Origin: a virus
Direction: 5' to 3' (one strand)
Length of the DNA stretch: 64,000 nucleotides
IMG/VR virus record: IMGVR_UViG_3300046001_006965
Coordinates: 1-64,000 of that record
Positions 16,647 through 52,487 of the stretch are shown piece after piece. The first letter of the stretch is position 1. Each line of letters opens with the position of its first letter. The position numbers and the translations under genes were made by a program. Under the pieces are notes generated by a model that had not been told where the DNA came from, did no database searches, and saw nothing but the letters and a program-made list of their open reading frames with translations.

Positions 16647-16877
16647 TTATTCTGCTTTTGTAAAATCAAGGTAATATTCTTTTCCCTCTTCGAAGAAATC
16701 TGCAGCTTGAGTTTCGTAGCTAATACTTAATGATACACTTCCAGCTGGCGTGTATTTTGCAAATGATTTGTTTTCATCGCTTCCTCCAATTACTGGATTA
16801 AGTGCAATTAGTTTTTGTTGATACTCTGGATCGTCCTTTACTGCGATACATTTGAACTTTGCTCTTACTTGTGGCAT
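16647..16877 (-). CDS. Conserved phage hypothetical protein
   Basis: 76 aa; VRAKF..ENKSFAKYTP.G..G.EYYLDF pattern common in phages. Confidence 0.75.
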   Translation of the reverse strand: MPQVRAKFKCIAVKDDPEYQQKLIALNPVIGGSDENKSFAKYTPAGSVSLSISYETQAADFFEEGKEYYLDFTKAE

Positions 16878-16930
16878 AATTTATATATTTTGATGTTCCC
16901 TACTCGTTAGCTTTTCGGGTTCCGCTTTTT

Positions 16931-17209
16931 TTAATCAATTTTCCACCCCTGAAAACTCAACCCAAAGCGGGTGATTCCGTTGCGGTCCTGGTATTCGTTA
17001 CCTCGAACATTCACGCTCACTTTTACTTGCTCTCCAATTTGAAGGTTATTCAATAAATCCACTTTGTCCTTGATGAATTCTATTGGTAGTTTTTGAGGAT
17101 ATTCTGCATCCGTTTGAATTACTACAATTTGTTTTCTCATTTGGTTGGATCCAATAAGTTCTACTTCAGATTTGAAATACACTTTTCCGATAATCTCTGC
17201 TTTGTCCAT
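16931..17209 (-). CDS. DUF3127-like OB-fold ssDNA-binding protein
   Basis: YPQ..PIEF..DK, V.VS.N.RG.E, S.QGWKI motifs. Confidence 0.75.
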   Translation of the reverse strand: MDKAEIIGKVYFKSEVELIGSNQMRKQIVVIQTDAEYPQKLPIEFIKDKVDLLNNLQIGEQVKVSVNVRGNEYQDRNGITRFGLSFQGWKID

Positions 17210-22797: not shown

Positions 22798-22868
22798 TTG
22801 CGGATGTCGGACTCGAACCGATCTAATAGGTTATGAGCCTACTGTGCTAGCCATTACACTACACCGCG
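22798..22868 (-). tRNA. tRNA-Met(CAT), initiator-like, degenerate
   Basis: CGCGGTG start, CTCATAA loop in a 5-bp stem, GGTTCGAGTCC T-arm; mismatches at the base of acceptor and T stems. Confidence 0.65.
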
Positions 22869-22974: not shown

Positions 22975-23044
22975 TGGAGAAGAACGGACTCGAACCGATA
23001 TACCGAAGCACCAACAACTGCTCTACCATTTGAGCTACTTCCCC
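22975..23044 (-). ncRNA. tRNA-like RNA lacking a canonical anticodon arm
   Basis: Intact acceptor GGGGAAG/CTTCTCC, D-arm GCTC/GAGC and T-loop TTCGAGT; only 20 nt between D and T arms. Confidence 0.65.
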
Positions 23045-23098: not shown

Positions 23099-23479
23099 TT
23101 AACAGTCGTTCCTGATCTTGTTACAGGAACTTGTTTTACTGGTCTTAAAATTTAAATTGTAATTTGTAATCAATTTTTCTTTGTATGGAATATGCACAAA
23201 AGATAAATTTTCACTTCGCCATCCTACATCTGTGATGATTGCTAAGGATGGGTTTAAAGTTTTTTGATTGCTTTCAATGAAAATACATTGAGAAAAAGCC
23301 GCTTCAATCGGAACGGAAACAACTTGAAAAGTGTAATCTACATTTACAGCCTCAATGCTGACAGATTGATCTGCCGTGAGTACTGTTTTCTGTTTTTGGT
23401 CCGGTTTGCTTGTAGTTGCAAATGCCGTCAAACTAATCATCCCGATTAGCAAAATAAAGACCGAACGAATGTTCTTCAT
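23099..23479 (-). CDS. Exported hypothetical protein
   Basis: Signal peptide ending AFA. Confidence 0.65.
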   Translation of the reverse strand: MKNIRSVFILLIGMISLTAFATTSKPDQKQKTVLTADQSVSIEAVNVDYTFQVVSVPIEAAFSQCIFIESNQKTLNPSLAIITDVGWRSENLSFVHIPYKEKLITNYNLNFKTSKTSSCNKIRNDC

Positions 23480-23487
23480 AACGATAT

Positions 23488-23528
23488 CAAAAGTAACATA
23501 TTTTACAATATAATTGCAAAATATGTTA
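23488..23528 (-). promoter_or_regulatory. Promoter with paired 15-bp operator (site 1 of 4)
   Basis: TACTTTTG -7 element; TAACATATTTTACAA and TTGCAAAATATGTTA, 20-bp period. Confidence 0.65.
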
Positions 23529-23546
23529 TTAATTAGTTAAAAAAAG

Positions 23547-26051: not shown

Positions 26052-26092
26052 CAAATGTAACAAAATATGTTATTACATTGCAAAATATGTTA
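26052..26092 (-). promoter_or_regulatory. Promoter with paired 15-bp operator (site 2 of 4)
   Basis: TACATTTG; TAACAAAATATGTTA and TTGCAAAATATGTTA. Confidence 0.65.
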
Positions 26093-26098
26093 TAATAG

Positions 26099-26124
26099 AA
26101 AAGCCACTTGCAGTAAGTGGCTTT
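26099..26124. terminator. Intrinsic terminator
   Basis: AAAGCCACTT/AAGTGGCTTT hairpin. Confidence 0.65.
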
Positions 26125-26245
26125 ATCATAAATAACTGAATGTTAATGTATTAAATTTTTGGTCGAAGAAATATAATTACATCATTCCCTATTTGTATTG
26201 GGGTGGGGCTTTCACATCAAAACCAACTTTATGGCCTGTTTTAGA

Positions 26246-31448: not shown

Positions 31449-31957
31449 TAGGCAAATAGATCTATTTGTTCCGCTTCGGTTGCCGGTTTCTTTTTGGCTG
31501 CCTTTGCAACTAATTTTTCTTTTTGCTCCGATACTACTTTTTCGATTGCTTGATTTTTAGCATCCTGTAAATCTTCTTCCGATAGTTTAATCTTTTTAGA
31601 AAGGGTTTTCTTCGCTTCTACTTTTGCTTCCTCGATCAACAAATCCATTGCTTTTTCTTTGGCTAATGCTTTATCTTCTTCGGTCAATTCAACGCTATGA
31701 TTGACGATTGCTTTTCCGGAGACTGGTTTGATGTTTTTGATGTCGTCTTCATCGTAGTAATGAACTGCCCAGCCAAATACCTCATCATCGGAATAACCGC
31801 CACAATCACCGTCCTTTGCGCACTTCATTACATAGCTGCAGCATTCGTCCAGATTTTTGTTTTCTTTTTGGTAGGTAACAGCGAAGAGTTCATCTTCAGA
31901 TGCTCTTTTGTCAAGGTAAGCCTTGATGGTTTCTTTAAATGCGTTTGATGTTTTCAT
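31448..31957 (-). CDS. PcfK-like protein
   Basis: F..TIK.YL..RA..D.LFA, D.EVF..AVHYYDEDDI; pairs with PcfJ. Confidence 0.85.
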   Translation of the reverse strand: MKTSNAFKETIKAYLDKRASEDELFAVTYQKENKNLDECCSYVMKCAKDGDCGGYSDDEVFGWAVHYYDEDDIKNIKPVSGKAIVNHSVELTEEDKALAKEKAMDLLIEEAKVEAKKTLSKKIKLSEEDLQDAKNQAIEKVVSEQKEKLVAKAAKKKPATEAEQIDLFA

Positions 31958-31998
31958 TTTACTCGTTTTTAAAATTTGATTGTTAATTAAAACGCAAA

Positions 31999-32083
31999 TG
32001 AGCTATAAATTCCCAACGTCTCACTTTTGGTTCATTACAGCTCAATGCTATGCTTTAAGTTTCGTAATGTGAGACGGAAACTG
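31999..32083 (-). ncRNA. Structured 5' leader RNA (pseudoknot), copy 1
   Basis: CGTCTCAC near the predicted start pairs with the GTGAGACG loop of a long hairpin. Confidence 0.6.
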
Positions 32084-32088
32084 TTTTG

Positions 32089-32140
32089 TAAATATATAAA
32101 ATCAATAACATATTTTGCAAGTTTATAACCTAATATGTTA
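32089..32140 (-). promoter_or_regulatory. Promoter with paired 15-bp operator (site 3 of 4)
   Basis: TATATTTA -7-like; TAACATATTTTGCAA and TAACCTAATATGTTA. Confidence 0.65.
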
Positions 32141-32162
32141 TTGTTCTAAATAAGATATGGAG

Positions 32163-35706: not shown

Positions 35707-36309
35707 TTAAACGGCTTGTGATTCATCATCGAATTTTGCATTATCAAAAGAGGCATCTTCTGAAGCAAAATCCATGTGCAATTGTTCTGGTTGTGGAGCT
35801 GATTTTCCGTTCATGTAAAACTCAACCTCTTTGATGGCATTATCTAAAATAGCAGTCAATTGAGTCAAATAAAGATAGGCTCCGTTTAGTTTTACTTTTG
35901 GAGCACTAAACTTAATTACTCCATTTGTCACTTCTTTGTAACCTGATAAAATCAAAGCTCTGTTTTCCTCTACTCCAGATATTGAAAAAGCATTCACGAA
36001 ATATTTTTCTGTTTCAACTTCTTCTTCAAGAAATGATAATTCGGTTGCATTATCATTACCCGTGTAGGCATCATCCAAGTGTGCCAGGAACACATCAAAC
36101 TTATCGAATGCTATTTCTAAATCTTCGTGAACGATGTGTTTTCCGTTTCTTGAAAGTCCATCGCCTTTAGTCTTTCCGGTTAATAATTCGTAGGAATAAT
36201 TGCAAAGAGCATCTTTGAGCGAAGCGCTTTTTATTTCTACATCTTTTTGAACTTGATCTGCTAATCCTAATTTTTCTGTAAGGATTGTGAAAACTTTTTC
36301 TTTTGACAT
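35707..36309 (-). CDS. Hypothetical protein
   Basis: 200 aa, acidic. Confidence 0.7.
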   Translation of the reverse strand: MSKEKVFTILTEKLGLADQVQKDVEIKSASLKDALCNYSYELLTGKTKGDGLSRNGKHIVHEDLEIAFDKFDVFLAHLDDAYTGNDNATELSFLEEEVETEKYFVNAFSISGVEENRALILSGYKEVTNGVIKFSAPKVKLNGAYLYLTQLTAILDNAIKEVEFYMNGKSAPQPEQLHMDFASEDASFDNAKFDDESQAV

Positions 36310-36318
36310 GGTGGTTAT

Positions 36319-36690
36319 TTAATTAAAAATTGATATTTGGTTTCTGTTTTGTTGCGATGCATTGGCCTGTTGTATCAGGCTGTATTCTTTGCTTATCCAA
36401 ACTCGCAACGGTCTTTGGTGGGCTTCTTTATTGGTGCTTTTTTGGGTTCTTTCGGTATCGAAAATCAAATGTCTTTTTGATAATTTTCTGAAAGGAACTC
36501 CAAAAACACTTGGTTGTGATGGAGGTGCATTTCCTGAATTAAAAAATGCCTTTTTCAGATCATCTGCAGTGAATGGTTTCATCTGTGTTTTTACCCAATT
36601 TTCGGCAAAAGCGCAAAGTTTATCGCAATAGACTTTGTTGTTTACTTCTACATCTTCGACGGCTTGGTTGGTTACTTGGAATGGTGTCAT
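36319..36690 (-). CDS. Hypothetical protein
   Basis: Likely start MTPFQV. Confidence 0.65.
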   Translation of the reverse strand: MTPFQVTNQAVEDVEVNNKVYCDKLCAFAENWVKTQMKPFTADDLKKAFFNSGNAPPSQPSVFGVPFRKLSKRHLIFDTERTQKSTNKEAHQRPLRVWISKEYSLIQQANASQQNRNQISIFN

Positions 36691-36704
36691 AATTTTTTTT
36701 TGTT

Positions 36705-36911
36705 TTAAAAAGATTCCTTTTCTTTGAATAAAGAGCAAGCAGCATCTTTACATTTAATTTTTAATAGTCCATTATTGGTTCTGTTTGATTTCCTGATACC
36801 ACAATACTGAAACACCTTTGAATTACATTCCCATCGTTGGCGGTGTTCACAATCTCTACAAGTATTTGTTGGTTTTGAAACCTGCTCTTCAAATTCAAAT
36901 AGATTAACCAT
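36705..36911 (-). CDS. Small Cys-rich protein
   Basis: 68 aa, CxxC. Confidence 0.6.
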   Translation of the reverse strand: MVNLFEFEEQVSKPTNTCRDCEHRQRWECNSKVFQYCGIRKSNRTNNGLLKIKCKDAACSLFKEKESF

Positions 36912-37293
36912 TAAAAGATTGCATTTCAGCTTTCGCTTTTGATATTAAAGTTCTGCACCAGTCTAGTTGGTGTGTACATGATGCATTTAATCTTGTTGCC
37001 CAAGTCAATAAGTAATTTTCATTTTCAACTAATGTATCTGTAAATTTTACTGCAACACTGGGTGGAAGGGCAACTATCTTTTTAATTTCTGAAACTATAT
37101 CACTCCTTAATTTACGGTCCTTATGAATTTTAGAATCAGCTAGAAGTTTTCCGGTTCTTGCCATATAAACTGATAATGTATTTCCTCTATAGACAGCCTC
37201 GTTAGCATCTTCACTCATTTCTATTTCAAGAAATTCCTGTATAGTTATTAGTTCTTTTTTAATTTCAGATAGGCTTGTTACTAAGTCATTCAT
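36904..37293 (-). CDS. Hypothetical helical protein
   Basis: 129 aa, coupled. Confidence 0.7.
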   Translation of the reverse strand: MNDLVTSLSEIKKELITIQEFLEIEMSEDANEAVYRGNTLSVYMARTGKLLADSKIHKDRKLRSDIVSEIKKIVALPPSVAVKFTDTLVENENYLLTWATRLNASCTHQLDWCRTLISKAKAEMQSFNG

Positions 37294-37299
37294 CTTTTT

Positions 37300-37524
37300 T
37301 TAATTTTTGTAACCGTTAAAAGCCATTACTTGATCTTCTGGAATAAGGAATTTCACTACTGCCGTCAATCCCCTAAAAAATCTTCTTTTCTGGGTAAGCG
37401 ACTGAATAATTCCTTGATGCTTTTTAATCCTGGCATCATATTTTTTAGCATAATGTTTACTGAGCTCTATTTCAAAAAGCAAGTAATTAATGCCGTTCAG
37501 CGTGTGTACAATTTTTTCACTCAT
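37300..37524 (-). CDS. Hypothetical protein
   Basis: Likely start MSEKIV. Confidence 0.6.
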   Translation of the reverse strand: MSEKIVHTLNGINYLLFEIELSKHYAKKYDARIKKHQGIIQSLTQKRRFFRGLTAVVKFLIPEDQVMAFNGYKN

Positions 37525-37811
37525 AATTCGGTGGCTTTTTTGATTGCTGATTTTGCTTTGTCCCAAGCAATGTGATTCCTATCTGAGATTTTAACTACTT
37601 CTATTAATGCTTCCAGTAATTCCGGGGCTGCTGCGATTAGCTTGGCGTTTGATTTTGAAACGCTTTCACAAATAAGGTTTCCACCATAATACTCAATGGC
37701 ATCTTCGCCAACCGAACCTCTTATAGAAAGTGATTCATCATTTTTAGAAATAACACAACTATTATATTTGCCTATTTCCCACGGTCCTTTTGTTCCTTTA
37801 AATTCTGCCAT
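37521..37811 (-). CDS. Conserved phage protein (TxGPW..NA.LIAAAPELLEAL family)
   Basis: Widely recurring phage early-gene motif. Confidence 0.75.
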   Translation of the reverse strand: MAEFKGTKGPWEIGKYNSCVISKNDESLSIRGSVGEDAIEYYGGNLICESVSKSNAKLIAAAPELLEALIEVVKISDRNHIAWDKAKSAIKKATEL

Positions 37812-37813
37812 AA

Positions 37814-38554
37814 CTAAAAAGGTGTTTTATTAAAATTAATTTTCATACCGTTACTCGCCACGGTGACGTTTTTTCCTGTGAGTTCTGCCACTTCTTTTTG
37901 AAATTGTTTTTCATCTGAATTGCTGTCTGAAAGATGTATCAAAACGATGTTGTTGACTTTCGTTAGATCATTGGCAGCCAACATATCCTTGCAGTTGGCC
38001 AGCGAGAAATGAGATCTTAAAATCCGGTTTCTCAAAAATTCCTTTCCAGAATCAGCTCCAAACTTTCTGTCGATGATTTCCTTTGAGAAATTGGCTTCGA
38101 TAATGATATTATTCAATCCCTTGAAAGTATATTCACAATAGTAGGTATCGGTCAGGAAAAGCACCTTTCCACAATCAGGATGCTCGATCAAGAACCCCAA
38201 AGGTTCCGCTGCATCGTGTTTCACATCGAAAGCCATTACCTTGAAGTTTCCAATTTGTACCGTTTGTCTGGGTTTGATTGCCGTGGCTCTTGGAAGTGAA
38301 AAAACAAAGCGTTTTTCCAATGTTCCGGCAGAAGCATACATATCAATTCCCAACTTTATCACATCATAAATGGCTTTGGAGTGGTCAAAGTGTTCGTGTG
38401 TACAAAGACAACCAACCACTTTTGACAAATCAAAATTCAAGGCCTGTTTTATGTCCTTGATGTTTACACCACACTCGATAAGCAAAGCCTCATTCTCGTT
38501 TCCAAGAATGTAGGCATTACCCTTTGAGCCAGTTCCTATTATGTTAAGATTCAT
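37814..38554 (-). CDS. Metallo-beta-lactamase-fold nuclease
   Basis: GTGS.GN, THEH.DH, HDA, TDT, IEAN, L.HLS. Confidence 0.9.
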   Translation of the reverse strand: MNLNIIGTGSKGNAYILGNENEALLIECGVNIKDIKQALNFDLSKVVGCLCTHEHFDHSKAIYDVIKLGIDMYASAGTLEKRFVFSLPRATAIKPRQTVQIGNFKVMAFDVKHDAAEPLGFLIEHPDCGKVLFLTDTYYCEYTFKGLNNIIIEANFSKEIIDRKFGADSGKEFLRNRILRSHFSLANCKDMLAANDLTKVNNIVLIHLSDSNSDEKQFQKEVAELTGKNVTVASNGMKINFNKTPF

Positions 38555-38656
38555 CTGATTTAGATTTAATAATTGAAAGACATATAACTATAAATACTGC
38601 AACAGCAAAGGCGGTATCTTTATGCCTTTCAATTGTTATGAAAAAAATTTCCATAA

Positions 38657-39529
38657 TTAGAAGTTTGGACCTGCAGGAGTTTCTTCAAATTCCAATTTTT
38701 CGGAAACCACTGTTTCAGGATCTACCACCACCGCATCTTCGATGTTGTTTTCGAAATCCAAACTTTGCTTGTTGGCTTTGGTTTTGATTTCGTGTTGAAC
38801 GTCTAATGCTGGTTTGTCTGAAAGTAATCCTTTGTCACTTGAAGAAGATGTTTCAATTTTAAGAGATCTTGCAATTACTGTTTTTTCACACATCTGGTCA
38901 GGAAATTTATTATGTGCCGGTGAATTCCCTTTTGCTCCACCCATTGACCAGGATGTTTTTATTTGGTCAATTGTCATTATTTCAGAATCTGAACTTCCAT
39001 CATTGTATGTAACAATTGCATAGGCGCCTACAATTTTATCATTGGCAATGTTTGCCAATTTTTGATTGTGTTTTGTGACATTTTTTCTTCCTGTAGAAAA
39101 ATCAACTGAATATTCAAATTCGTCATCTTTATAAACAGTCACAGCATTCACTTCTTTAACATTTGCAACCCTTTTGGCTATTGCAATATCTCCAATATAT
39201 GATTGGTCAAACTGGAGCTTATTCCCATAAACAACAAAGTATCCTTGCTTTTTTGAAACACTTAAACCGCTTGTTACCATATCAAGAAAAGCATTTGCAA
39301 TGCTTTCTTTGGTACAAACTTCAAGTGCTGGATTTCCTCCTCTATCCACTACTCCTTGTAATACCAACCAAGCGGCTCTAACTGCGTTTTCAGGAACATA
39401 ATCAGATGGTAAAACGATCTCTCCTGTGGCTTGTATTTCGGCTATTCTGGACAATACACTATTTACAGTTGCTTCGGTAAATTTGTTTGTCTTTTTTTCT
39501 ACTACTTGTACATTTTCTGTTGTGCTCAT
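38657..39529 (-). CDS. recT: RecT-family ssDNA annealing protein
   Basis: GL...KKQ.YF..YG, IVGAYA, H..F.DQM..KTVI. Confidence 0.85.
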   Translation of the reverse strand: MSTTENVQVVEKKTNKFTEATVNSVLSRIAEIQATGEIVLPSDYVPENAVRAAWLVLQGVVDRGGNPALEVCTKESIANAFLDMVTSGLSVSKKQGYFVVYGNKLQFDQSYIGDIAIAKRVANVKEVNAVTVYKDDEFEYSVDFSTGRKNVTKHNQKLANIANDKIVGAYAIVTYNDGSSDSEIMTIDQIKTSWSMGGAKGNSPAHNKFPDQMCEKTVIARSLKIETSSSSDKGLLSDKPALDVQHEIKTKANKQSLDFENNIEDAVVVDPETVVSEKLEFEETPAGPNF

Positions 39530-39548
39530 TTTTTTAAAATTTGATTGT

Positions 39549-39764
39549 TTATAATTCTATTACTAATTGATTACTGTTTATGATGGCTTCACACCTCACG
39601 AATTCAAGGTCAAAGGCTTGGGATTCGATTTCTTTTTTGGTATTTTGATTGTGTTTGCAGTTGGCGGTGCAATCAAAACTTCCAATTGTAATTCCTTTGT
39701 TTACCTTGCAATTTGCCAATAGATGACCGTCTTTGTTGCGTGGTATTTTGGTTTTATTTTCCAT
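39549..39764 (-). CDS. Small Cys-containing hypothetical protein
   Basis: Likely start MENKTK, directly after leader RNA 2. Confidence 0.6.
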   Translation of the reverse strand: MENKTKIPRNKDGHLLANCKVNKGITIGSFDCTANCKHNQNTKKEIESQAFDLEFVRCEAIINSNQLVIEL

Positions 39765-39778
39765 TTTAAAATAAAAAT

Positions 39779-39862
39779 GCCTTCGAAAAATCAATTACCG
39801 TCCGACGGGCAATCTCTTTTAAGAAGGCTAAAAGTTTAAAGTTCTACTGTCGGACGAACTAC
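39779..39862 (-). ncRNA. Structured 5' leader RNA (pseudoknot), copy 2
   Basis: CGTCCGAC near the predicted start pairs with GTCGGACG at the loop of a long hairpin. Confidence 0.6.
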
Positions 39863-39866
39863 TTTG

Positions 39867-39919
39867 TAAATATACAAATTAAAATAACATATTTTGCAAT
39901 TAAATAACTAAATATGTTA
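39867..39919 (-). promoter_or_regulatory. Promoter with paired 15-bp operator (site 4 of 4)
   Basis: TATATTTA; TAACATATTTTGCAA and TAACTAAATATGTTA. Confidence 0.65.
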
Positions 39920-39936
39920 TTATTTTTTAGCATCCA

Positions 39937-42012
39937 TTAGGCAGCTTGAAGTATTAATGGTAATCCTGTTTTTGCATCAATTAAAATTCCGTTTACTTTT
40001 GGATTTCCAACATTTAAAACAGAACCCTTCCATACATTAAGATTTACTAACTGGCTTTCAATATCAATAACCTCGATAATGCTTTCCCTGTTGTCGATAA
40101 AGATGGGAGCCGTAACTTGGTAGAATTCGCAAAGCGTGTTGATGATGTCCAGTCCGGCATTAATTCTGGATGCAGTATTAGCATCACTGAACGGCACGCC
40201 ATCGATTAAAGCATCACAGCATTCAGATTCTCCACCATTGATTTGCGTTTCGAACATTCTGAATTTTACGAACTTGAATTTCTCGTTGATCTTGGATTCA
40301 AGCGTATCTATTTTCAGTTTGTTGAAACGTTCTATAACGAATTGCGTTTTCTCGACATTGGCGATTTGTTGTGCCAAATCCTTTTCCTCTTGCTCCAGGG
40401 CTGCAATACGATTGTCAACGGCTTTGATTTGGTCCTCGTTACGTAATTGTGATTTGATTTCGTCAATGGCGGTTACCAAGGCTGAACGGGTGCTTTGCAA
40501 TTCTGAAATATCAACCACCGGAACATCTTCTATGGTTGCCAGAATTGTTTTGAGCTCAATTTTCTTATCAAGGTAATTGTGATTTGTTGAAAGTGAGTGC
40601 TCATAAATAGCTGTTTCGTCAACCGCTGCCGTTGGTGTAACTTTTGAAGTTTCGGTTTCTATTTCTAGTTTTAAAGATTCGATTTCTTTGCCTAAATCAG
40701 CAACCATTTTTTCTCCTTTTTCGATTCGTTCCGCAAATAACCAAACCTCAGCTTGCACAACTCCTTTTTCGTCTCCCAATGCTTTTCCTTGTCTTTGAAT
40801 TTCTGCAAGGCTACTGGCTTTTGCTGTTTTGAAATTGGATAACATTTCGGTTTTTTTGCCTTTAACATCACCTGCTTCAAAATCACGCTTGCATGTTGGA
40901 CAATGAAAATCGTTATCATTGAAAGTCAATTCCTTTGCGTTTTCAATTCCCCAAGCTTCACGTTTTGCAAGAATCTGTTTTTCGAGATTGTTTAAATCTT
41001 CAGTTCGCATTGTCTTTTTGGAATGCAATAACTGAACTCCATTTTTGGCGCTTTGCAAGTCGGCCACTTTTGCTTCGTGGGTTCTTTTCAATCCATCCAG
41101 AACCGATGTGTCAGGAATTGATTTGCGTTGTGATTCTCTTTTTGCGTTGGCTTCAATCGTTTCGATGTCCGATTTGATGCTGTTGGCTTTAGCTTTCTTT
41201 TGGTTCACTTCGGCAAGTGCTCCATCAAAAGCAGCCGATTTATTTTGGATGGCTTGATCTACTTTTTTAAGGTCCGTTTCTTTCAATCCTAGACCTACTT
41301 TTAAATTATTGAAATCAACTGCCTCTGGACGTGATTTGTAAACCTCATCAATTCGAACTGGGATTCCTTTCAAATCTTCTTTTGCTTTTTTGATGGAAGC
41401 AAGAATTTGTTTTTGATATTCAACCAATGTTTTCCCGTTGGTTAATTGTGCCACCAAATTTTCATATTCTGCGTTTCCTGCTGCCAAATCACCGTCCGAA
41501 ATTGCACCGGCAATAGCTACTAAAACATTTCTTCTGTCTTGCCATTTCAAGGAATTAAACGCCAATGGATTTGTGATCATTTTGAAAACTGTTTCCTCCA
41601 GAATGGCGCTCACTTTTTCTTGAAATGTTTTTTGTTGCATTGGCACGCCATCCCAATAATACTCTGTTACGTTGCCTGAAAACTCGGTAACTTCCGAACC
41701 TCTTTTTTTAACCCAGTTTTCTTTTAGGATTTTTGAAATTTCAATCTTCACATCATCGACCAGGATAACCGATGCCACTTCATGTTCTATTTTTGGGATT
41801 GCCACATTAAATTTATCTAATGTTTTTATCTCAAAATCTTTTCTGTCTGTAGAATCTTTCCCAAACAACATCCAGAGAAAAGCATCCATGATGGTTGTTT
41901 TTCCGGTTCCGTTTGCTCCAAAAATATCAGTGTTCTTATTGAACGTGATTTTTTCATTTCTCAGTCCTTTGAAGTTAGTAAGGCTGATTTCTAAAATTTG
42001 AATTGTTTTCAT
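39937..42012 (-). CDS. SbcC/Rad50-like coiled-coil ATPase
   Basis: NFKG, GANGTGKTT, central CPTC hook, PIFIDNRES. Confidence 0.88.
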   Translation of the reverse strand: MKTIQILEISLTNFKGLRNEKITFNKNTDIFGANGTGKTTIMDAFLWMLFGKDSTDRKDFEIKTLDKFNVAIPKIEHEVASVILVDDVKIEISKILKENWVKKRGSEVTEFSGNVTEYYWDGVPMQQKTFQEKVSAILEETVFKMITNPLAFNSLKWQDRRNVLVAIAGAISDGDLAAGNAEYENLVAQLTNGKTLVEYQKQILASIKKAKEDLKGIPVRIDEVYKSRPEAVDFNNLKVGLGLKETDLKKVDQAIQNKSAAFDGALAEVNQKKAKANSIKSDIETIEANAKRESQRKSIPDTSVLDGLKRTHEAKVADLQSAKNGVQLLHSKKTMRTEDLNNLEKQILAKREAWGIENAKELTFNDNDFHCPTCKRDFEAGDVKGKKTEMLSNFKTAKASSLAEIQRQGKALGDEKGVVQAEVWLFAERIEKGEKMVADLGKEIESLKLEIETETSKVTPTAAVDETAIYEHSLSTNHNYLDKKIELKTILATIEDVPVVDISELQSTRSALVTAIDEIKSQLRNEDQIKAVDNRIAALEQEEKDLAQQIANVEKTQFVIERFNKLKIDTLESKINEKFKFVKFRMFETQINGGESECCDALIDGVPFSDANTASRINAGLDIINTLCEFYQVTAPIFIDNRESIIEVIDIESQLVNLNVWKGSVLNVGNPKVNGILIDAKTGLPLILQAA

Positions 42013-42035
42013 TTTACTCGTTTTAAATTTGATTG

Positions 42036-42311
42036 TTATAATTTCTCTACTAATATTTCCAGTGCTTTTGACTCAAAAGACACGTTTGTTTCGATGGAAT
42101 AAAGCGCATTGGCTATTGTGGTGTATGCTGCTTTTCGCACGTTGTTTTTGGTAATTTCAGCTTCATTCATACATCCGTGAATGAATGCGGTGAAGTCTTG
42201 GTATGTTTCCACTTTGAGATAAGCGCTTTCGATGTAGGCATATACGAAAGGGAACATTGGAAACTTAATGTCCGGTTTGGTGAATTCTGAATTAATTTGT
42301 AGTTTTGACAT
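42036..42311 (-). CDS. Hypothetical protein
   Basis: 91 aa ORF. Confidence 0.6.
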   Translation of the reverse strand: MSKLQINSEFTKPDIKFPMFPFVYAYIESAYLKVETYQDFTAFIHGCMNEAEITKNNVRKAAYTTIANALYSIETNVSFESKALEILVEKL

Positions 42312-42356
42312 CTCTAAAAGTTTTTAATTATTACTCGTGATTGAAAATTTGATTGT

Positions 42357-42387
42357 AAAAACCACTTTTCGCGAAGTGGTTTTTTTT
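42357..42387 (-). terminator. Intrinsic terminator
   Basis: AAAAACCACTT/AAGTGGTTTTT. Confidence 0.7.
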
Positions 42388-42613
42388 ATTTTGTTAAACT
42401 TGCTATTGCTTCCAGTTTCTTTTCGGGAGACAGTTCGTATTTACCCTTTCGGGCGGAACTGGAAGCTCCCAAACTATCCAGTTCCAACTCTAAGTATCTC
42501 TTACGGCTTGTAATCGAACTTAATCCTTGCATAAAGAGCTGCTCCTGGGTTTCTAATTCCCTTGTTTCTCTTTTTATGAATGCTATTTTTTCTAGTCTAT
42601 TCATCAGTGCCAT
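42386..42613 (-). CDS. Hypothetical protein
   Basis: 75 aa ORF. Confidence 0.6.
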   Translation of the reverse strand: MALMNRLEKIAFIKRETRELETQEQLFMQGLSSITSRKRYLELELDSLGASSSARKGKYELSPEKKLEAIASLTK

Positions 42614-42838
42614 CTATTTAGTTTATCATAAACCCACTTGCCCAAATTCAGCAATCCCAAAATTGCTATCAGGATTATGCAGACAATAATTCCAAGATCG
42701 TATCTATCCATTTTGGCTTGAGTGTTAAAAGGGTTAAACCAATTAAGGCATCTGATCCAAACCCAACTGAACAGATCAGTAAAAATGTTTGGTAAATTCT
42801 GTGAGTTCTTTCGTCGTCGTAGTTCATGGCATAAATTT

Positions 42839-43063
42839 TTACAATGATTTCATTTTTCTAAATGATGCAATTGTTTCTTCGGAATACACCAGTTTGACCC
42901 GGTGCGTTACGTGTCCAGAGCTGTTTCTTTTTTCGGGAACCGGAACCCTGTTTGCGTTGTCACTCACTTCAATGAAATGATGCAATCCGCTGTCGGCCAC
43001 AAAAACCACTTGCAGAAATTTGCCGGTTTTTGTTTTGTAGACTTGGTTGAGTTCTACTGCCAT
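42839..43063 (-). CDS. Hypothetical protein
   Basis: 74 aa ORF. Confidence 0.6.
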   Translation of the reverse strand: MAVELNQVYKTKTGKFLQVVFVADSGLHHFIEVSDNANRVPVPEKRNSSGHVTHRVKLVYSEETIASFRKMKSL

Positions 43064-43186
43064 TATCCTTTCATATCGCCAAAGGCAACAACAAAAGAGA
43101 TCATCGCTAAAGCGGAAAGCCAGAAAATGATTGTGGCTTTGTTGGTTTTGATTAACTGTTTCATGGTAGTTATTTTTTAGGGTTAA

Positions 43187-43399
43187 CTAATTGGTGATTG
43201 TTTCTGTTTCAAAAATTTCTTTTTCTTTTAATCCGGTAGATTTATAGTATTTAACAGCTTTGAATTTTGTCAAATTATCGCTATTGCGTTCTGCTAATTG
43301 TTCTACATTTCTTTCGGTAACTCCTAAAGCTAGAGCAGTATGCTGACGAAATACCCTGTCTGTTTTAATTTTATTAAGTATTAATTGTGATACTTTCAT
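43187..43399 (-). CDS. Cro-like HTH protein
   Basis: Divergent from repressor; ALALGVTERNV; start MKVSQL. Confidence 0.7.
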   Translation of the reverse strand: MKVSQLILNKIKTDRVFRQHTALALGVTERNVEQLAERNSDNLTKFKAVKYYKSTGLKEKEIFETETITN

Positions 43400-43515
43400 T
43401 ATTTTTATGTATTTTTGTTCGTATATATATGCAAATATACACCGAATATTCATATAACAAAACAAATAACACCTTTTTTTCGTGTTTATTTGAATTATTT
43501 TTTAAAAGTTTTAAA
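43400..43515. promoter_or_regulatory. Lysis/lysogeny switch region
   Basis: Minus-strand TATATTTG at 43432-43439; 17-bp ACACC boxes at 43439-43455 and 43469-43485. Confidence 0.6.
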
Positions 43516-43890
43516 ATGAATGGTTTACAATTAAAAGAAAAGCGAAATAGACTAGGCCTAACCCAGACAGAACTGGCAGAACAGGTTGGAGTTGCTATGC
43601 GTACCGTTCAAAATTGGGAGAAAAATACAAATAAAATACCAAAAAGCACCGAGGTATTTATTGACGAGCTACTTAAAAACACCGAAATTTCATATTTGAA
43701 TACATCTAATAAACCCGAAGAGTCTAATCCTACCTACACTATCAAGGAAAAAATGACCACAGAAAGCCCACCTCAAAAAGAGAATGACCACGAATATGTT
43801 GTCGTTAGTAGGTTAACAAAGATGTTAGACGATGCTTATCAGGAAATAAAATTGCTTCGTCAAGAGTTGGAACGAAAGAAAAACAATTGA
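43516..43890 (+). CDS. CI-like XRE repressor (no peptidase domain)
   Basis: LK..R..LGLTQ.ELAE.VGV..RTVQNWE. Confidence 0.88.
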   Translation: MNGLQLKEKRNRLGLTQTELAEQVGVAMRTVQNWEKNTNKIPKSTEVFIDELLKNTEISYLNTSNKPEESNPTYTIKEKMTTESPPQKENDHEYVVVSRLTKMLDDAYQEIKLLRQELERKKNN

Positions 43891-44092
43891 ATTTTTAGAA
43901 TTAAAATTTCAGAATAGGCACAAATTAGTCTGCAAATCAATACAGCACATTGGATTTTTGGGGGCATTACAAATTATTTAAGAATTAAAAATTGAAATTA
44001 AGTTTATAAAAATTATCGTTTTTACGGGAAACCTCATTTTTGAATTTCTTGTAATTTGCAGATTAATATTCAACAAGTTAAAAACAACGATT

Positions 44093-44647
44093 ATGAAAAA
44101 TATTATTTTAGTAATATTAGTATTATTTAATTTATCTATTTACGGCCAAGAAGCTGAATTCAAATTCACTAAAGATGGCCTTACTGATTTTGTTATAACA
44201 CCAGTAAATGGTAAAACCCAATCCGAGCTTTACAAAAAAACATTGGAGTGGGTTTCTTATTCTTTTAAAGAACCAGCAGAGGTTATAAAAGCGAATATCG
44301 AAAATGAGTATATTCGAATAGAAGGATTTAGCAAAGAATTAATTTGCTACAGTTATATGGGAAAAAGATGTGGAGATACCAAGTATGAAATCGAAATTTC
44401 ATTTAAAGATGGAAAATACAAATTTGATGTTTTGAGTATTTTAGAATACAACAATATGTCTAAATCTATTTTGTGGACCAATTTCGAGATCAATAATACT
44501 GCAGCTTATTTTGATAAAAAAGGAGAGGTAAAGAGCTCGTACAAGTTTATCGTTAAAACGGTTCCGGAGTATTTCAATAAACTTAACATAAACTTAAGAG
44601 ATTTTTTAATTAGTGATGGAGTTTCCAGCAAAAAAAACGATTGGTAA
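44093..44647 (+). CDS. Exported DUF4468-like protein (lysogenic conversion candidate)
   Basis: Signal peptide; GKT..ELY..W, I.FKDGKYK motifs. Confidence 0.7.
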   Translation: MKNIILVILVLFNLSIYGQEAEFKFTKDGLTDFVITPVNGKTQSELYKKTLEWVSYSFKEPAEVIKANIENEYIRIEGFSKELICYSYMGKRCGDTKYEIEISFKDGKYKFDVLSILEYNNMSKSILWTNFEINNTAAYFDKKGEVKSSYKFIVKTVPEYFNKLNINLRDFLISDGVSSKKNDW

Positions 44648-44910
44648 TGTACACTTCAGATGAAAGAATAATCCACCTTATTGATCTTTTGAAATATCAA
44701 AAGACAATTATCTATGATAAAGATTTTTGTCAAGATGTAGGAATGTTGGAGCAAACCGTTTCAAAAATAAAAAAAGGCAAAAATCATTTTACGGTATTGC
44801 AAATTGAAGCGATCTGCAAAAAATACAATGTGAATGCCAACTGGATTTTTGGAGTTCAAAAAAACATCTTTAATATTCCTCAGCCCAAACAAATAAAGGA
44901 GTTAAGCTAA
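44647..44910 (+). CDS. XRE-type HTH protein
   Basis: FC..VG...QTVSKIK.G, NVNANWI.G. Confidence 0.75.
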   Translation: MYTSDERIIHLIDLLKYQKTIIYDKDFCQDVGMLEQTVSKIKKGKNHFTVLQIEAICKKYNVNANWIFGVQKNIFNIPQPKQIKELS

Positions 44911-45195: not shown

Positions 45196-46401
45196 ATGGC
45201 AAAAAATTTATTATTCGATTGTGCGTACTCTGACCTATGGGTACACCCCGAAAACTGGAAAACACTGACTTCCCAGAAATCATTACAACTTGACTGGCGC
45301 GTGGAATGCAAATTCTATGACCCTAAATTTAAGGAAAAGTACCCAAAAGGCTTTTTATTCAGAAAAAAACTTAACCGGTTCCGATCATTGGAGGAACGTA
45401 AAGCTGTTGTCGAAACGTGGTTAAAGGAAATCCCAAAACTTTTTGAAGACAAAGGATATAATCCAATTACCAAAAAATACATGGTTCAGGAACTCAAACC
45501 AGTTCCAGGATCATTGCACCCGAAATTAAACTTTGTTGAAGCTCTCAAAATCGCTTATCCCTTGTTGTCGGTTTCCGAAGGCGTAACGAAAGAGATCAGG
45601 AGAATTGTCGCCAAGGTGGAGAAATCAGCAATTGCATTGAAAATGGAATTTCCTATATGTGAAATTCACAGCGGCCATGTCCGTGATTTGTTGGATCCTT
45701 TGGACTTGACACCAAACGAATATAATAAATACCTCACTCATTTATCAATTGTGCTCTCTGACTTGGTGGAAAAAAGAATGGTTTTTCACAATCCTATTAA
45801 GGACATCAAAAAGAAAAAAACAGTCAAGAAAATTCGTGAAACCCTTGAAGTTGACGAACTGAACAAAATATTCAAGATTCTAAAAACAGAAAATTATACT
45901 TTTTTCAGATATGGCATGATATTCTTTCATTCCGGAGCCAGAACCGCTGAATTGTTTCGAGTTCAGAAAAAGGATGTAAATCTAGCCAAGCAGGAATATA
46001 AAATAACTATCCTGAAAGGCAGTGTCAGCAAGGAAGTAATCAAGGTTATATTGCCAAACGCATTGCCTTTCTGGACCGAAATTATCAATGAATGTACCGA
46101 TGATGAAGATTATCTGTTTACAAGAGGCTTGAAGCCGTCATTGATTCCAATACAAGCATTTCAAATCAGCATTAGATGGAGGCGTTGGGTAAAAAAGAAA
46201 TTAGATGTAACTGCTGATTTTTATGCATTGAAACATTTGTTCCTGGACGAACTAGACAAAGCTTCAGATGGTGAAAGTAATTTATCAAAAGGAATGGCCT
46301 CACACGAAACGAATGTTACAGAAACGGTATACTTAGTAGGTAGAAATAATCGAAAAAATGAAGCATTGAAAAAGATAAACATTCAATTCTTAAATATATA
46401 A
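45196..46401 (+). CDS. int: Tyrosine integrase
   Basis: SGAR..E, FYALKH, H....T..Y catalytic pattern; next to att core. Confidence 0.9.
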   Translation: MAKNLLFDCAYSDLWVHPENWKTLTSQKSLQLDWRVECKFYDPKFKEKYPKGFLFRKKLNRFRSLEERKAVVETWLKEIPKLFEDKGYNPITKKYMVQELKPVPGSLHPKLNFVEALKIAYPLLSVSEGVTKEIRRIVAKVEKSAIALKMEFPICEIHSGHVRDLLDPLDLTPNEYNKYLTHLSIVLSDLVEKRMVFHNPIKDIKKKKTVKKIRETLEVDELNKIFKILKTENYTFFRYGMIFFHSGARTAELFRVQKKDVNLAKQEYKITILKGSVSKEVIKVILPNALPFWTEIINECTDDEDYLFTRGLKPSLIPIQAFQISIRWRRWVKKKLDVTADFYALKHLFLDELDKASDGESNLSKGMASHETNVTETVYLVGRNNRKNEALKKINIQFLNI

Positions 46402-50797: not shown

Positions 50798-51184
50798 TTA
50801 TCTTGGTTCCCAAATACCGTCATAAACGTTGTCACTAACTAAATTATAAAGCAAACCTTTAAGCAACAAAAAATCATCCAATTCACTTCCAATCAATGTT
50901 GTTTCTTCGCCATAAATAGAAAGCAAAACTTCTTTTTGCTCGTCATATTCCTGATAGGTTTTTTGATAGGTTTTGACTTGAATATCCCCGTGTCGGTTGC
51001 GTAAAATTGCCACGCTTTCCGTTTCCAATCCCTTGTCATAAACAATACTGTCAACCGCTTGCAAAGTGTATGTTTTGTTCACGTCATCTTTGTTGGTAAC
51101 TTGTAAATCAATTTGCACGTGCTCGATAACTTTGCCCTCACGATCTTGACATAAAAAGACTTTTTCCGTTGTAATTGCTCTCAT
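50798..51184 (-). CDS. Tail-fibre-associated hypothetical protein
   Basis: 128 aa; paralog at the window start. Confidence 0.75.
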   Translation of the reverse strand: MRAITTEKVFLCQDREGKVIEHVQIDLQVTNKDDVNKTYTLQAVDSIVYDKGLETESVAILRNRHGDIQVKTYQKTYQEYDEQKEVLLSIYGEETTLIGSELDDFLLLKGLLYNLVSDNVYDGIWEPR

Positions 51185-51461
51185 AATAATTTTTTTAAAG
51201 ATTACCCACGCATAAATATTCGTTCGCTACACCCGTGTTCGCTATTGTGTGAGATAGCTTTTCAGCCATTGTCGTTCCCGTGTTGTCCAATAGCACAATT
51301 GAACCCCCTAAAGCATAAGTAAGCGTAACCCCTGCTCTTGTTTTGACGCTATAATTAAACCCCAAAGCAAGACCGTTTGGCAATGTAAGAGTACAACTCG
51401 CAGTCAATAAAATAACTTTGCCGTTGTATGTGTTGTCTAAAGTGGTGTTTGTGCCGATTTT
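50983..51461. repeat. Direct repeat copy 2 of tail-fibre-tip module
   Basis: Matches 1-480. Confidence 0.97.
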
Positions 51462-52487
51462 TAATATTGTGATATCCAAATTTTGAGCCGCTGCCGGATG
51501 CGTATGTGTCGTGATTTCTCCAGTAAGTTTCGCTTCAATTTCGGCTTTTGTGATATTGCTGTTTTTCTGGGCATCGTTTGGAGCCGTGGATGGTGTGTAA
51601 CCTAAAGCGGCTACTATATTTGCAAGAGTTAAATTCGTCAAGAATCTAGCAACGGTAAAATACAAATTAGTACTTCCTTCCGGCAAAGTATCAGTATTAA
51701 CCGCCCCACTGCCACCAGAACCATTGTTTACCCAGATATTTTCCTCTGCATCCCAAGAGTAATTTACAACATCAGTTGAACCCACAATATTCACCTGTGC
51801 AGAATCCCCGGCAGATGCAGTTGGGTGCGCCGCGTTTAAAGCAGCCTCGGTCAAGTAAACACCTTTAGAGTGGTTGTTGTAATCTGCGGCATCTAGCTTT
51901 AAAGCCAAAGCATCAAAAACAACATTTTCACTAGGTGCATATCCCGTTTCGCCATTTCTTAATTGTTGAGAAACTGCCCATCTAGGTTTAGGTATCACCG
52001 GTGTACCCACAACCGTACTCTCAACATCAATAGAGGCCAATTCAATTGTTCCCGTTGGTGCTGATGGCTTCAAGGCCACACCAACTCCTTCATCTCCTGG
52101 TACCCGATAAATTGTACCAAGGTTTGTCCCTACAAAAATATCAGTACGAATATAGCCGGAAGTGGCGAAAGGAAGCACTGTATTATAAGCGGCCGCATTG
52201 GTATATTGAACTTGCAGCAATCTCCAAATAAAGTCCTCCGCAAGTATGTCAACGGTCGTTCCGGTTACGATAACCTCACCCTCTTTGATAACATCATCAG
52301 GAAGGGCAATGGCGTTAATTTTAACGTCTTGAGCCAACAAAACAGCATCAAGTCCCTCAATACTTTCATAAGGAACACTTTCGCTTTTATGCCTAAAGCT
52401 ATCCCACACATCCCAAAACTGTGCTTGGGTTGGTTTTAAACCAGTTTTAAACCAGTTTTTTATCGTAGTTAAAGAAACTATTGCCAT
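51195..52487 (-). CDS. Tail fibre protein of phage B
   Basis: KNWFKTG.KPTQ.QFW..WDSF.HK N-terminus, EGSTNLYFT motif, shared C-terminal domain. Confidence 0.8.
   Translation of the reverse strand: MAIVSLTTIKNWFKTGLKPTQAQFWDVWDSFRHKSESVPYESIEGLDAVLLAQDVKINAIALPDDVIKEGEVIVTGTTVDILAEDFIWRLLQVQYTNAAAYNTVLPFATSGYIRTDIFVGTNLGTIYRVPGDEGVGVALKPSAPTGTIELASIDVESTVVGTPVIPKPRWAVSQQLRNGETGYAPSENVVFDALALKLDAADYNNHSKGVYLTEAALNAAHPTASAGDSAQVNIVGSTDVVNYSWDAEENIWVNNGSGGSGAVNTDTLPEGSTNLYFTVARFLTNLTLANIVAALGYTPSTAPNDAQKNSNITKAEIEAKLTGEITTHTHPAAAQNLDITILKIGTNTTLDNTYNGKVILLTASCTLTLPNGLALGFNYSVKTRAGVTLTYALGGSIVLLDNTGTTMAEKLSHTIANTGVANEYLCVGNL

Follow-up and report, generated by a model that had tools for sequence, protein, structure and literature searches.

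We describe a leader RNA, called leader 2, at the head of an early phage operon. Our best explanation, held with middling confidence and derived from sequence comparison, is a mobile promoter-plus-attenuator cassette in which the loop of a terminator-like hairpin would be docked on a hairpin at the 5' end, the attenuator action being a prediction. Leader 2 itself is a modelled intramolecular kissing loop, i.e. a loop-loop contact of two hairpins, and the physical contact is likewise predicted. Compensating changes in other phages indicate that the leader is a real, conserved regulatory cassette, and a regulatory effect is plausible.

Genomic setting of leader 2

The window analyzed here covers the initial 64 kb of a virus record of 82,969 bases. 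The G+C content lies between 33 and 42% across the window and most genes are found on the minus strand, while an integrase (45196-46401) and an XRE-type regulator (44641-44910) are encoded on the plus strand. The leftward early region consists of small ORFs and an SbcC-like ATPase (39937-42012), followed by a spacer of 172 nt that contains leader 2. The first gene after the leader (39549-39764, minus strand) encodes 71 amino acids without a family match, and its homologues in two relatives, L073 and L056, begin at the equivalent ATG. Next come recT (38657-39529), an MBL-fold hydrolase (37814-38554) and the genes of a helicase, a replication initiator and a Holliday-junction resolvase. Thus, leader 2 does head a recT-replication operon, as an earlier note on this DNA had proposed. 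A second spacer (206 nt) with a sister leader, leader 1, follows, and PcfK-like, PcfJ-like and sliding-clamp genes lie past it. A phage nucleotide search with positions 36000-44000 gave zero matches.

Several other elements of the window were recorded. An Rfam DUF805b RNA match (16897-16928, minus strand; 40 bits compared with a gathering score of 35.6) is located between ORFs 16931-17209 and 16647-16877 in the structural-gene region. Two phage-borne tRNA genes (22799-22867 and 22975-23044, minus strand) lie downstream of a promoter at 23492-23530. Positions 1-494 are 89% identical to 50983-51475, which is the only long internal repeat within the window, and the right-hand third (46.6-64 kb) may be a second phage-like module.

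Parts and predicted fold of leader 2

All positions of leader 2 refer to the minus strand. In the minimum free energy (MFE) folds the 5'-terminal hairpin, P1 (39840-39860), is formed by AGUUC (39860-39856) and GAACU (39844-39840), which enclose an 11-nt loop (39855-39845). The 5' side of this loop is occupied by the kissing sequence K, CGUCCGAC (39849-39856), and the first C of K also closes P1. This is the octamer CGTCCGAC that the earlier note had placed at 39856-39849, and an inverted-repeat search located its exact reverse complement, GTCGGACG, at 39806-39799. An A/U-rich linker (39829-39839) separates P1 from P2; an A-rich linker at this place is found in all lineages described below. P2 (39779-39828) is a long terminator-like hairpin. 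Its lower stem GCCUUC/GAAGGC, two 2x2 internal loops, upper stem GAUUGCC/GGUAAUU and apical loop (39807-39800) were recovered both by the inverted repeats and by the MFE fold, in agreement with the hairpin described before. The complement of K, termed K' (GUCGGACG, 39799-39806), fills the 3' side of the apical loop. Directly 3' of the G+C-rich base of P2 runs the U-tract AUUUUUAUUUU (39768-39778), and the ATG at 39764 stands 14 nt after the hairpin, so that these two details of the earlier description were also correct.

As a free duplex K and K' of leader 2 reach -13.2 kcal/mol, and 7-8 bases of the P1 loop are predicted to pair with the P2 apical loop. The full 8-bp kiss requires that the closing pairs of P1 and P2 are opened. 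The 106-nt stretch with leader 2 folds with -25.5 kcal/mol (z = -2.87), and 3 of 200 shuffled sequences fold as well as the native one.

The earlier note had described this arrangement as a pseudoknot with a free 5' strand. The complementarity of octamer and loop was confirmed and is maintained by compensatory change across seven lineages. The free 5' strand was not, since the octamer sits inside the loop of P1; we therefore speak of a kissing loop and not of a plain pseudoknot. An H-type pseudoknot was ruled out, as the 5' segment is enclosed by the P1 stem in every lineage. Topologically the contact is still a pseudoknot in the broad sense. In leaders 1 and 2 and in the metagenome matches the complementarity of K and K' ends exactly at the loop edges, and the neighbouring bases are unpaired.

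In the folds, each P2 is interrupted by a symmetric internal loop (2x2 or 3x3) at a distance of 4-7 bp from the apical loop. These internal loops are often purine-rich (GA/GA, GA/AA, AG/GA, GAA/GAA) or UU/UU and may be a hinge or a protein site; examples are 39822-39815 with 39792-39785 of the window and the corresponding regions of L320, L329 and L233. Some other readings of the spacer were rejected. A TTG start at 39794 is not conserved in relatives that lack the leader, and a hammerhead- or pistol-like ribozyme, a boxA/nut-like site and a leader peptide were rejected from the sequences.

Predicted promoter and operator-like palindrome

A Bacteroidetes sigma-A promoter is predicted at 39867-39899 (minus strand). 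It consists of a TTG (39899-39897) and, after 21-22 nt, a -7 box TATATTTA (39874-39867). The accessible text on such promoters gives the -7 box consensus as TAnnTTTG at -12 to -5 (PMC9723704). From the position of the -7 box the start is predicted at about 39862, two bases ahead of P1. The fit of this box together with the upstream TTG leads to predicted starts at about 39862 for leader 2 and about 32084 for leader 1. P2 is thus located inside the predicted transcript, about 35-85 nt after its start. A -7 box and CAAA ahead of P1 are present in six of the seven lineages, and the leader L102a has TACTTTAG and GCAAA, where it has to be kept in mind that the search patterns fixed promoter letters, so that their conservation in relatives does not count as evidence.

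The upstream edge of the cassette is formed by an operator-like palindrome (39883-39921, minus strand) with half-sites at 39921-39905 and 39899-39883. When up to three mismatches are allowed, the palindrome has nine matches in the window compared with 1.5 expected, and none of 100 shuffles reaches nine. It is shared, with the half-site TTGCAAAATATGTTATT, by four promoters at 23492-23530, 26058-26094, 32104-32142 and 39883-39921. The palindrome presumably binds a regulator and is probably the operator of a widespread one. The exact operator 17-mer was found at 66 loci in viral contigs; a leader accompanies it only in L056, and several loci carry the palindrome alone.

The palindrome was also seen beside divergent gene starts on otherwise unrelated viral contigs (L012, L019, L031, L040, L042, L046, L054, L059 and L066). 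The copy at 23492-23530 embeds a perfect promoter (-33 TTTG, 21 nt, -7 TACTTTTG) 13 nt before the ATG at 23479 and has no leader. Directly upstream of the promoter at 26094 stands a compact canonical terminator, AGCCACUU/AAGUGGCU with a U-run (26112-26140, minus strand). The order of terminator and then promoter at this site is like that of the promoter-early stem-loops (PeSLs) discussed below and the reverse of that in the leader cassettes.

Leader 1, the sister cassette

As the earlier note had claimed, this phage has a further leader that is built alike but carries another octamer. The leader 1 cassette (31985-32142, minus strand) comprises the palindrome (32142-32104), a -7 box (32096-32089) with the predicted start at about 32084, P1 (32082-32058, AGUUUC/GAAACU), P2 (32048-31994) and a U-rich tail (31993-31985). 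Its K is CGUCUCAC (32076-32069) and its K' is GUGAGACG (32024-32017). About 70 nt are common to both spacers, namely the palindrome half-site TTGCAAAATATGTTATT, then TATATTTACAAA and then AGUU(U)C just before K. Cross-pairs of K and K' between the two leaders of one genome, in this phage and in L102 described below, amount to only -5.3 to +0.5 kcal/mol. A scan of the whole 82,969-base record with the covariance model R1 detected just these two cassette copies.

Relatives in viral and metagenome contigs

Relatives were searched in public collections with patterns that described only the promoter/P1 part and contained no information about P2. The patterns fixed the promoter, AGTT/AACT and parts of K (four K letters in the metagenome and one-genome-per-species scans). 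For this reason these letters give no evidence of conservation, and the range of K sequences is sampled incompletely. The collection contains 19 instances with 16 unique sequences, which fall into seven lineages with seven different kissing sequences of 8-9 nt. Two instances belong to this phage and the others lie on viral and metagenome contigs. The K sequences of the seven lineages are CGUCCGAC, CGUCUCAC, GAUCCUAC, AGGUCGGAA, CGUCUGAC, GCAUCUCAC and GCUCUCACA. Each of them pairs perfectly with its own K' over 8-9 bp, with energies of -10.7 to -14.2 kcal/mol.

Among viral contigs the P1-arm pattern gave 108 matches, three of which are real (L056, L102 and L233); L223 and L266 were discarded as chance 7-mers within apparent coding sequence. 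The pattern TATATTTACAAANNAGTT gave at least 117 matches, with two real ones (L056, L102) among the matches listed. L105 and L174, found with the same pattern, hold chance 8-mer pairs without the architecture. The metagenome contigs yielded 24 matches. Thirteen of these have an 8-9-nt complement at the expected place, and the 11 without any complement of at least 6 nt look like chance matches. A stricter pattern applied to the one-genome-per-species collection produced a single chance match without a complement, so that the family in its strict form was not seen there. No match in viral contigs was obtained with a pattern for leader-2 orthologues with any K. The covariance model R1, run over 88 loci (743,274 bases), detected only L056, a syntenic relative that carries leader 1.

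A scan for structure alone revealed a second leader in L102 (L102a), located 390 nt upstream of the first, with an entirely different P1 stem (GUGUU/AACAC) and a 9-nt kiss. This loose scan returns many A/T-rich false positives on phage contigs and was applied only to contigs that bear a leader; the 13 metagenome loci gave nothing new. Away from the leader, L233 (6575-6650, plus strand) and L326 (3749-3830, plus strand) contain a long perfect hairpin with 10-nt arms about 46-48 nt apart, which may be a bidirectional terminator.

Covariation and controls

All 16 unique leaders have MFE folds in which P1 and P2 form, K being part of the P1 loop and K' of the P2 apical loop; four of these folds contain 2-3 additional weak pairs within a loop. 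For the comparison of lineages we used a plain MAFFT alignment of 15 rows (A2), from which RNAalifold returned the kiss helix itself. L102a is wrongly aligned in A2, and its row adds the unpaired cells and a small number of accidental pairs to both of the following counts; its own fold, taken separately, is one of those just described. For the kiss, 95.7% of the cells are paired, compared with 82.3% in shuffled controls (0 of 500 reach the observed value) and 16-50% when the helix is slid, and six of the eight pairs show compensatory changes. For P1, the kiss and upper P2 together the value is 93.6% against 28-50% when slid, with 12 of 19 pairs compensated. All five pairs of the upper P2 stem show compensatory changes across lineages. 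The P1 helix is 92% paired, and one of its pairs occurs in five types (GC, AU, UA, CG and GU).

Changes of this kind were also observed within the near-identical L233 family. Position 6 of K is G in two sequences and C in four, and the change from C to G in K' matches that from G to C in K. In addition, one pair of the lower stem is either A-U or G-C.

Next to the alignment, the chance level of the octamer match was determined. Each leader-2 octamer occurs a single time in the 64-kb window. Only five inverted 8-mer pairs (at least five G/C, the second starting 20-100 nt later, 12-92 nt between) exist in the window, and two of them are leader 2 and leader 1. When both loops were shuffled, an 8-nt match arose in 10 of 20000 trials for leader 2, and the other six lineages gave 1-41 matches per 20000 trials. 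Taken as a prediction from sequence, the RNA structure of P1, kiss and P2 is very likely real.

Gain and loss of the cassette

Comparison with related phages indicates that promoter and leader form one unit of gain and loss. In X3, X4 and X5, DNA contigs of relatives, position 31957 is joined to 32164 by 35 letters instead of 206. As these 35 letters match only the stretch after P2 of leader 1, the palindrome, promoter, P1 and P2 are missing from these relatives as one block. X4 and X5 carry leader 2 up to 39926 and then diverge upstream; one X4 contig switches at 39902 to sequence like that of the promoter at 23492-23530. L056 possesses leader 1, lacks leader 2 and has an extra ORF at its place. 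The closest RecT relatives (L073-L075) have no spacer, the stop of the ATPase gene overlapping or directly preceding the next start. The recT operon thus does not always carry leader 2. The leader-2 cassette is flanked by a direct repeat of 6 nt, AATGGA (39933-39938 and 39760-39765), and relatives without the cassette have a TAATG stop/start overlap where the repeat stands. The repeat may be insertion microhomology or chance.

The genes found after the cassette elsewhere encode NUMOD4-HNH(-AP2) and GIY-YIG-AP2 homing endonucleases, an AntA antirepressor, DUF6378 with thymidylate synthase, and small unknown ORFs. An HNH or GIY-YIG homing endonuclease follows directly in two of the seven lineages, and an identical leader of the L320 family stands ahead of four different genes. 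Five loci were anchored on a homing-endonuclease protein, and a leader was present only at the locus of the L233 contig. Since the other four lack it, the leader is not a fixed companion of homing endonucleases. An all-against-all comparison of the proteins of leader-bearing contigs, which are mostly fragments, gave no candidate for a shared trans factor common to all; only the endonuclease/AP2 group and one helicase are shared between lineages.

Proposed mode of action

We propose that the cassette (39921-39768, minus strand) would be self-contained, with a host-type sigma-A-like promoter that is overlaid by a palindromic operator. Through the kiss the transcript would be attached with its 5' end to the apex of the terminator-like P2. 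P1 would be the first to fold, K' would be caught by K on leaving the polymerase, and P2 would then close around the kiss as a promoter-proximal intrinsic terminator, i.e. an attenuator. Such an attenuator would pass a set fraction of transcripts into the operon, both those from the cassette promoter and those that read through from upstream. By pre-organizing and stabilizing P2, which is long, A/U-rich and bulged, the kiss would ensure its reliable folding irrespective of the RNA on either side, and would also leave a compact, nuclease-resistant structure at the 5' end of the RNA. The start of transcription, actual termination and the direction in which the kiss acts are what we infer from this arrangement.

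The terminator-like character assigned to P2 by the earlier note held up by eye, as a G+C-rich base followed by a U-rich tail was seen in seven of seven lineages. Because of this base and U-run in all lineages, P2 is most likely an intrinsic terminator near the promoter, as a prediction. It is placed between the predicted promoter upstream and the ATG of the operon downstream, which across lineages follows the base of P2 by about 14-45 nt. A consensus terminator scan did not list P2, because its stem is long and interrupted. P2 of leader 2 is unlike the compact canonical terminators of the same phage, e.g. that at 26140-26112, and the U-run could in part come from the A/U-rich translation start regions of the phylum. 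Without the kiss P2 is stable within the folds at about -17 to -25 kcal/mol, so that there is no evident need for folding help. A strong terminator within an essential early operon would need read-through or antitermination, and we found no antitermination factor for the cassette.

The earlier note had suggested that pairing of the octamer toggles termination or translation. Since the modelled complementarity does not reach beyond the loops, it speaks against a simple strand-exchange toggle. No alternative antiterminator helix that competes with the P2 lower stem was detected in any fold of the 16 unique leaders. Since a competing helix is lacking and the kiss never invades the stem, docking or locking is favoured over a strand-exchange toggle.

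The absent competitor also bears on a role of the kiss opposite to the proposed one, which we consider unlikely. Here, capture of K' by the P1 loop would strain or delay the closure of P2, and the cassette would work as a self-antiterminator or insulator. Transcripts with a well-folded 5' P1 would then read through, and the hairpin would be a barrier in other contexts. The cassette would thus combine a promoter with a conditional terminator, a job like that of the PeSLs with a different order of parts. Such an action fits the location of the cassette in long operons, whose essential genes would be shut off by a plain strong terminator. It also fits the order of synthesis, in which K' precedes the 3' arm of P2 and the kiss has the chance to form ahead of the hairpin, and the need of the full leader-2 kiss to open closing pairs of both hairpins. 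PeSLs are a phage precedent for promoter and terminator in one mobile unit, as far as the accessible text of PMC2839356 goes. However, the kiss touches the apical loop only, and termination depends on the lower stem, which has no competing helix in any fold. Moreover, RNA that reads through from upstream also contains P1 and K, and nothing obvious would distinguish the two classes of transcript.

Rather improbable, too, is a role of the short terminated leader as a product in its own right. This product would be a compact, kiss-closed RNA of about 95 nt, which a terminator near the promoter would set free. It might protect mRNA like a 5' cap, or it might target read-through transcripts or co-infecting ones in trans, where the 8-9-nt sequences would be address codes, and it would work like Gifsy-1 IsrK, the CI RNA of phage P4 or the c4 RNA of P1/P7. 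In IsrK, a prophage leader, the terminated form acts on the read-through form according to the accessible text (PMC4825925). The leaders are orthogonal in both genomes with two of them (the window and L102), and a central G/C swap separates the otherwise near-identical leaders of the L233 family. On the other hand, this swap stands beside an ordinary compensated stem pair, as in neutral structural drift, and the identical L320-family leader before four genes means that orthogonality is not a rule. In the folded leader K and K' occupy each other, which leaves neither free for a partner in trans, and the window contains no other copy of either octamer.

A bolder version of attenuation seems doubtful to a similar degree. 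It holds that the cassette is an address-coded, protein-independent attenuator, in which the 8-9-nt kiss is the decision element with its own code for each cassette and the terminated leader could feed back on nascent transcripts of the same code. If true, modules of one genome or of co-infecting phages would not cross-talk. The cassette would then be a self-contained RNA device for timing or immunity in Bacteroidetes phages and a source of natural orthogonal parts.

A feature at the DNA level is very unlikely. In this case the octamers would serve as half-sites for a protein, or would form the arms of a hairpin or cruciform in the DNA for recombination or movement of the cassette, and the RNA structure would be irrelevant. 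It is true that an inverted repeat is symmetric in DNA, that the cassette is gained and lost as a unit and that its edges lie at repeated operator sequences. The conservation of nothing but complementarity among seven different octamers is, however, a signature of base pairing and not of protein recognition, and the elements always lie in sense orientation between a promoter and a U-tract/ATG. In each of 14 cores the sense strand of the genes gives a better fold than the antisense strand, and G-U pairs, through which this advantage arises, make up 50 of the 376 predicted pairs. It follows that the structure is one of the RNA or, at the least, of the sense strand.

Finally, chance complementarity in an A/T-rich spacer beside an ordinary terminator is hardly credible: inverted 8-mer pairs do arise (in 2 of the 115 non-member matches among those listed for TATATTTACAAANNAGTT), and loose scans of phage contigs contain many A/T-rich pairs, but the arrangement recurs in seven lineages with different sequences, a complement accompanies 13 of 24 metagenome pattern matches compared with 0 of 11 non-members, and the shuffle and slide controls contradict it.

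Comparison with known systems

The docked attenuator cassette preferred here has its closest likeness in the PeSLs of T4-type phages described by Arbiol et al. 2010. According to the accessible text, these are mobile cassettes of a host-type promoter and a stem-loop terminator or attenuator, repeated within a genome and found at indel or replacement boundaries between close relatives, often beside accessory genes (PMC2839356). The cassettes share with them the format of a small intergenic promoter and stem-loop unit with two copies in the genome and a location at indel boundaries. The stem-loop of a PeSL is found ahead of the promoter boxes, between them, over them or immediately before the start, so that the cassette's transcripts escape it (PMC2839356, accessible text). 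In contrast, the hairpin described here lies about 35-85 nt inside its own predicted transcript. A second hairpin or loop-loop complementarity does not figure in the accessible text on PeSLs, and phage group, host phylum and promoter type are different.

A terminator or terminator-like element at the start of a mobile or accessory phage gene is also known from T4 mobE, where an intrinsic terminator limits a free-standing homing endonuclease and about 30-50% termination was measured (PMC2790892, accessible text). The accessible text describes a short hairpin (9 bp, 4-nt loop) within the coding region, without a promoter of its own or a tertiary contact (PMC2790892). The present cassette differs by its own predicted promoter, the long P2 and the loop-loop contact. 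In Gifsy-1 IsrK a prophage promoter closely before a terminator gives a short RNA and a read-through mRNA, and pairing within the leader decides on expression (PMC4825925, accessible text). IsrK acts in trans and on translation. It has no similarity in sequence or structure to the leader, and a kiss of a 5' hairpin with the terminator loop is absent from the accessible text on it.

At gathering thresholds Rfam 15 matched the window only with the two tRNAs and DUF805b, all of them elsewhere. A permissive search (E up to 10) with leader 2 and both L102 leaders gave noise of at most 18.9 bits compared with thresholds of 44-100. A full-text literature search found no description of such a leader, and the leader RNA is apparently undescribed.

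Loop-loop helices act as switches in riboswitches, as in L5-L13 of the cobalamin and L2-L3 of the purine or lysine riboswitch. Here as there, an intramolecular helix connects the loop of an upstream hairpin to that of an expression-platform hairpin in a 5' leader. Riboswitches with kissing loops have a conserved ligand-binding core and conserved loop sequences. In contrast, nothing but the pairing is conserved here; no conserved unpaired core that could bind a ligand was found across the lineages, and no Rfam riboswitch matched.

The CI RNA of P4 (seqA/B/C) and the c4 RNA of P1/P7 control premature termination or translation by short complementarities within the leader, and their specificity is altered by compensating substitutions between related phages. 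Short complementary leader segments with compensating substitutions between relatives are common to these and the present leader. The immunity RNAs differ in structure from the present leader, for which the Rfam C4 model gave no match. They undergo processing and have single-stranded targets on which they act in trans, and P4 termination depends on a factor.

The lambda PR'-tR' region is a promoter with a terminator within about 100-200 nt that is overcome through antitermination by Q, and HK022 put is a two-hairpin RNA near a promoter that acts in cis. A promoter closely before a terminator-like element and two hairpins near the promoter are found here as well. Neither a Q-like protein nor a put-like sequence was found, and the second hairpin is itself terminator-like in the present leader, unlike in those systems.

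To our knowledge, almost nothing is known about control of transcription after initiation in Bacteroidetes phages. The leader, of about 100 nt, is strongly supported by comparison and has a simple and easily mutated layout of two hairpins and one 8-bp tertiary helix of free sequence. Should termination or RNA stability be determined by the kiss, this would represent a new design of attenuator, would explain why phage operons are not shut off when a promoter module enters them, and would provide naturally orthogonal parts for Bacteroidetes genetics. Even if its effect is modest, the leader would be a candidate RNA family and its cassette a second example of a mobile promoter-terminator cassette, outside the T4-type phages.
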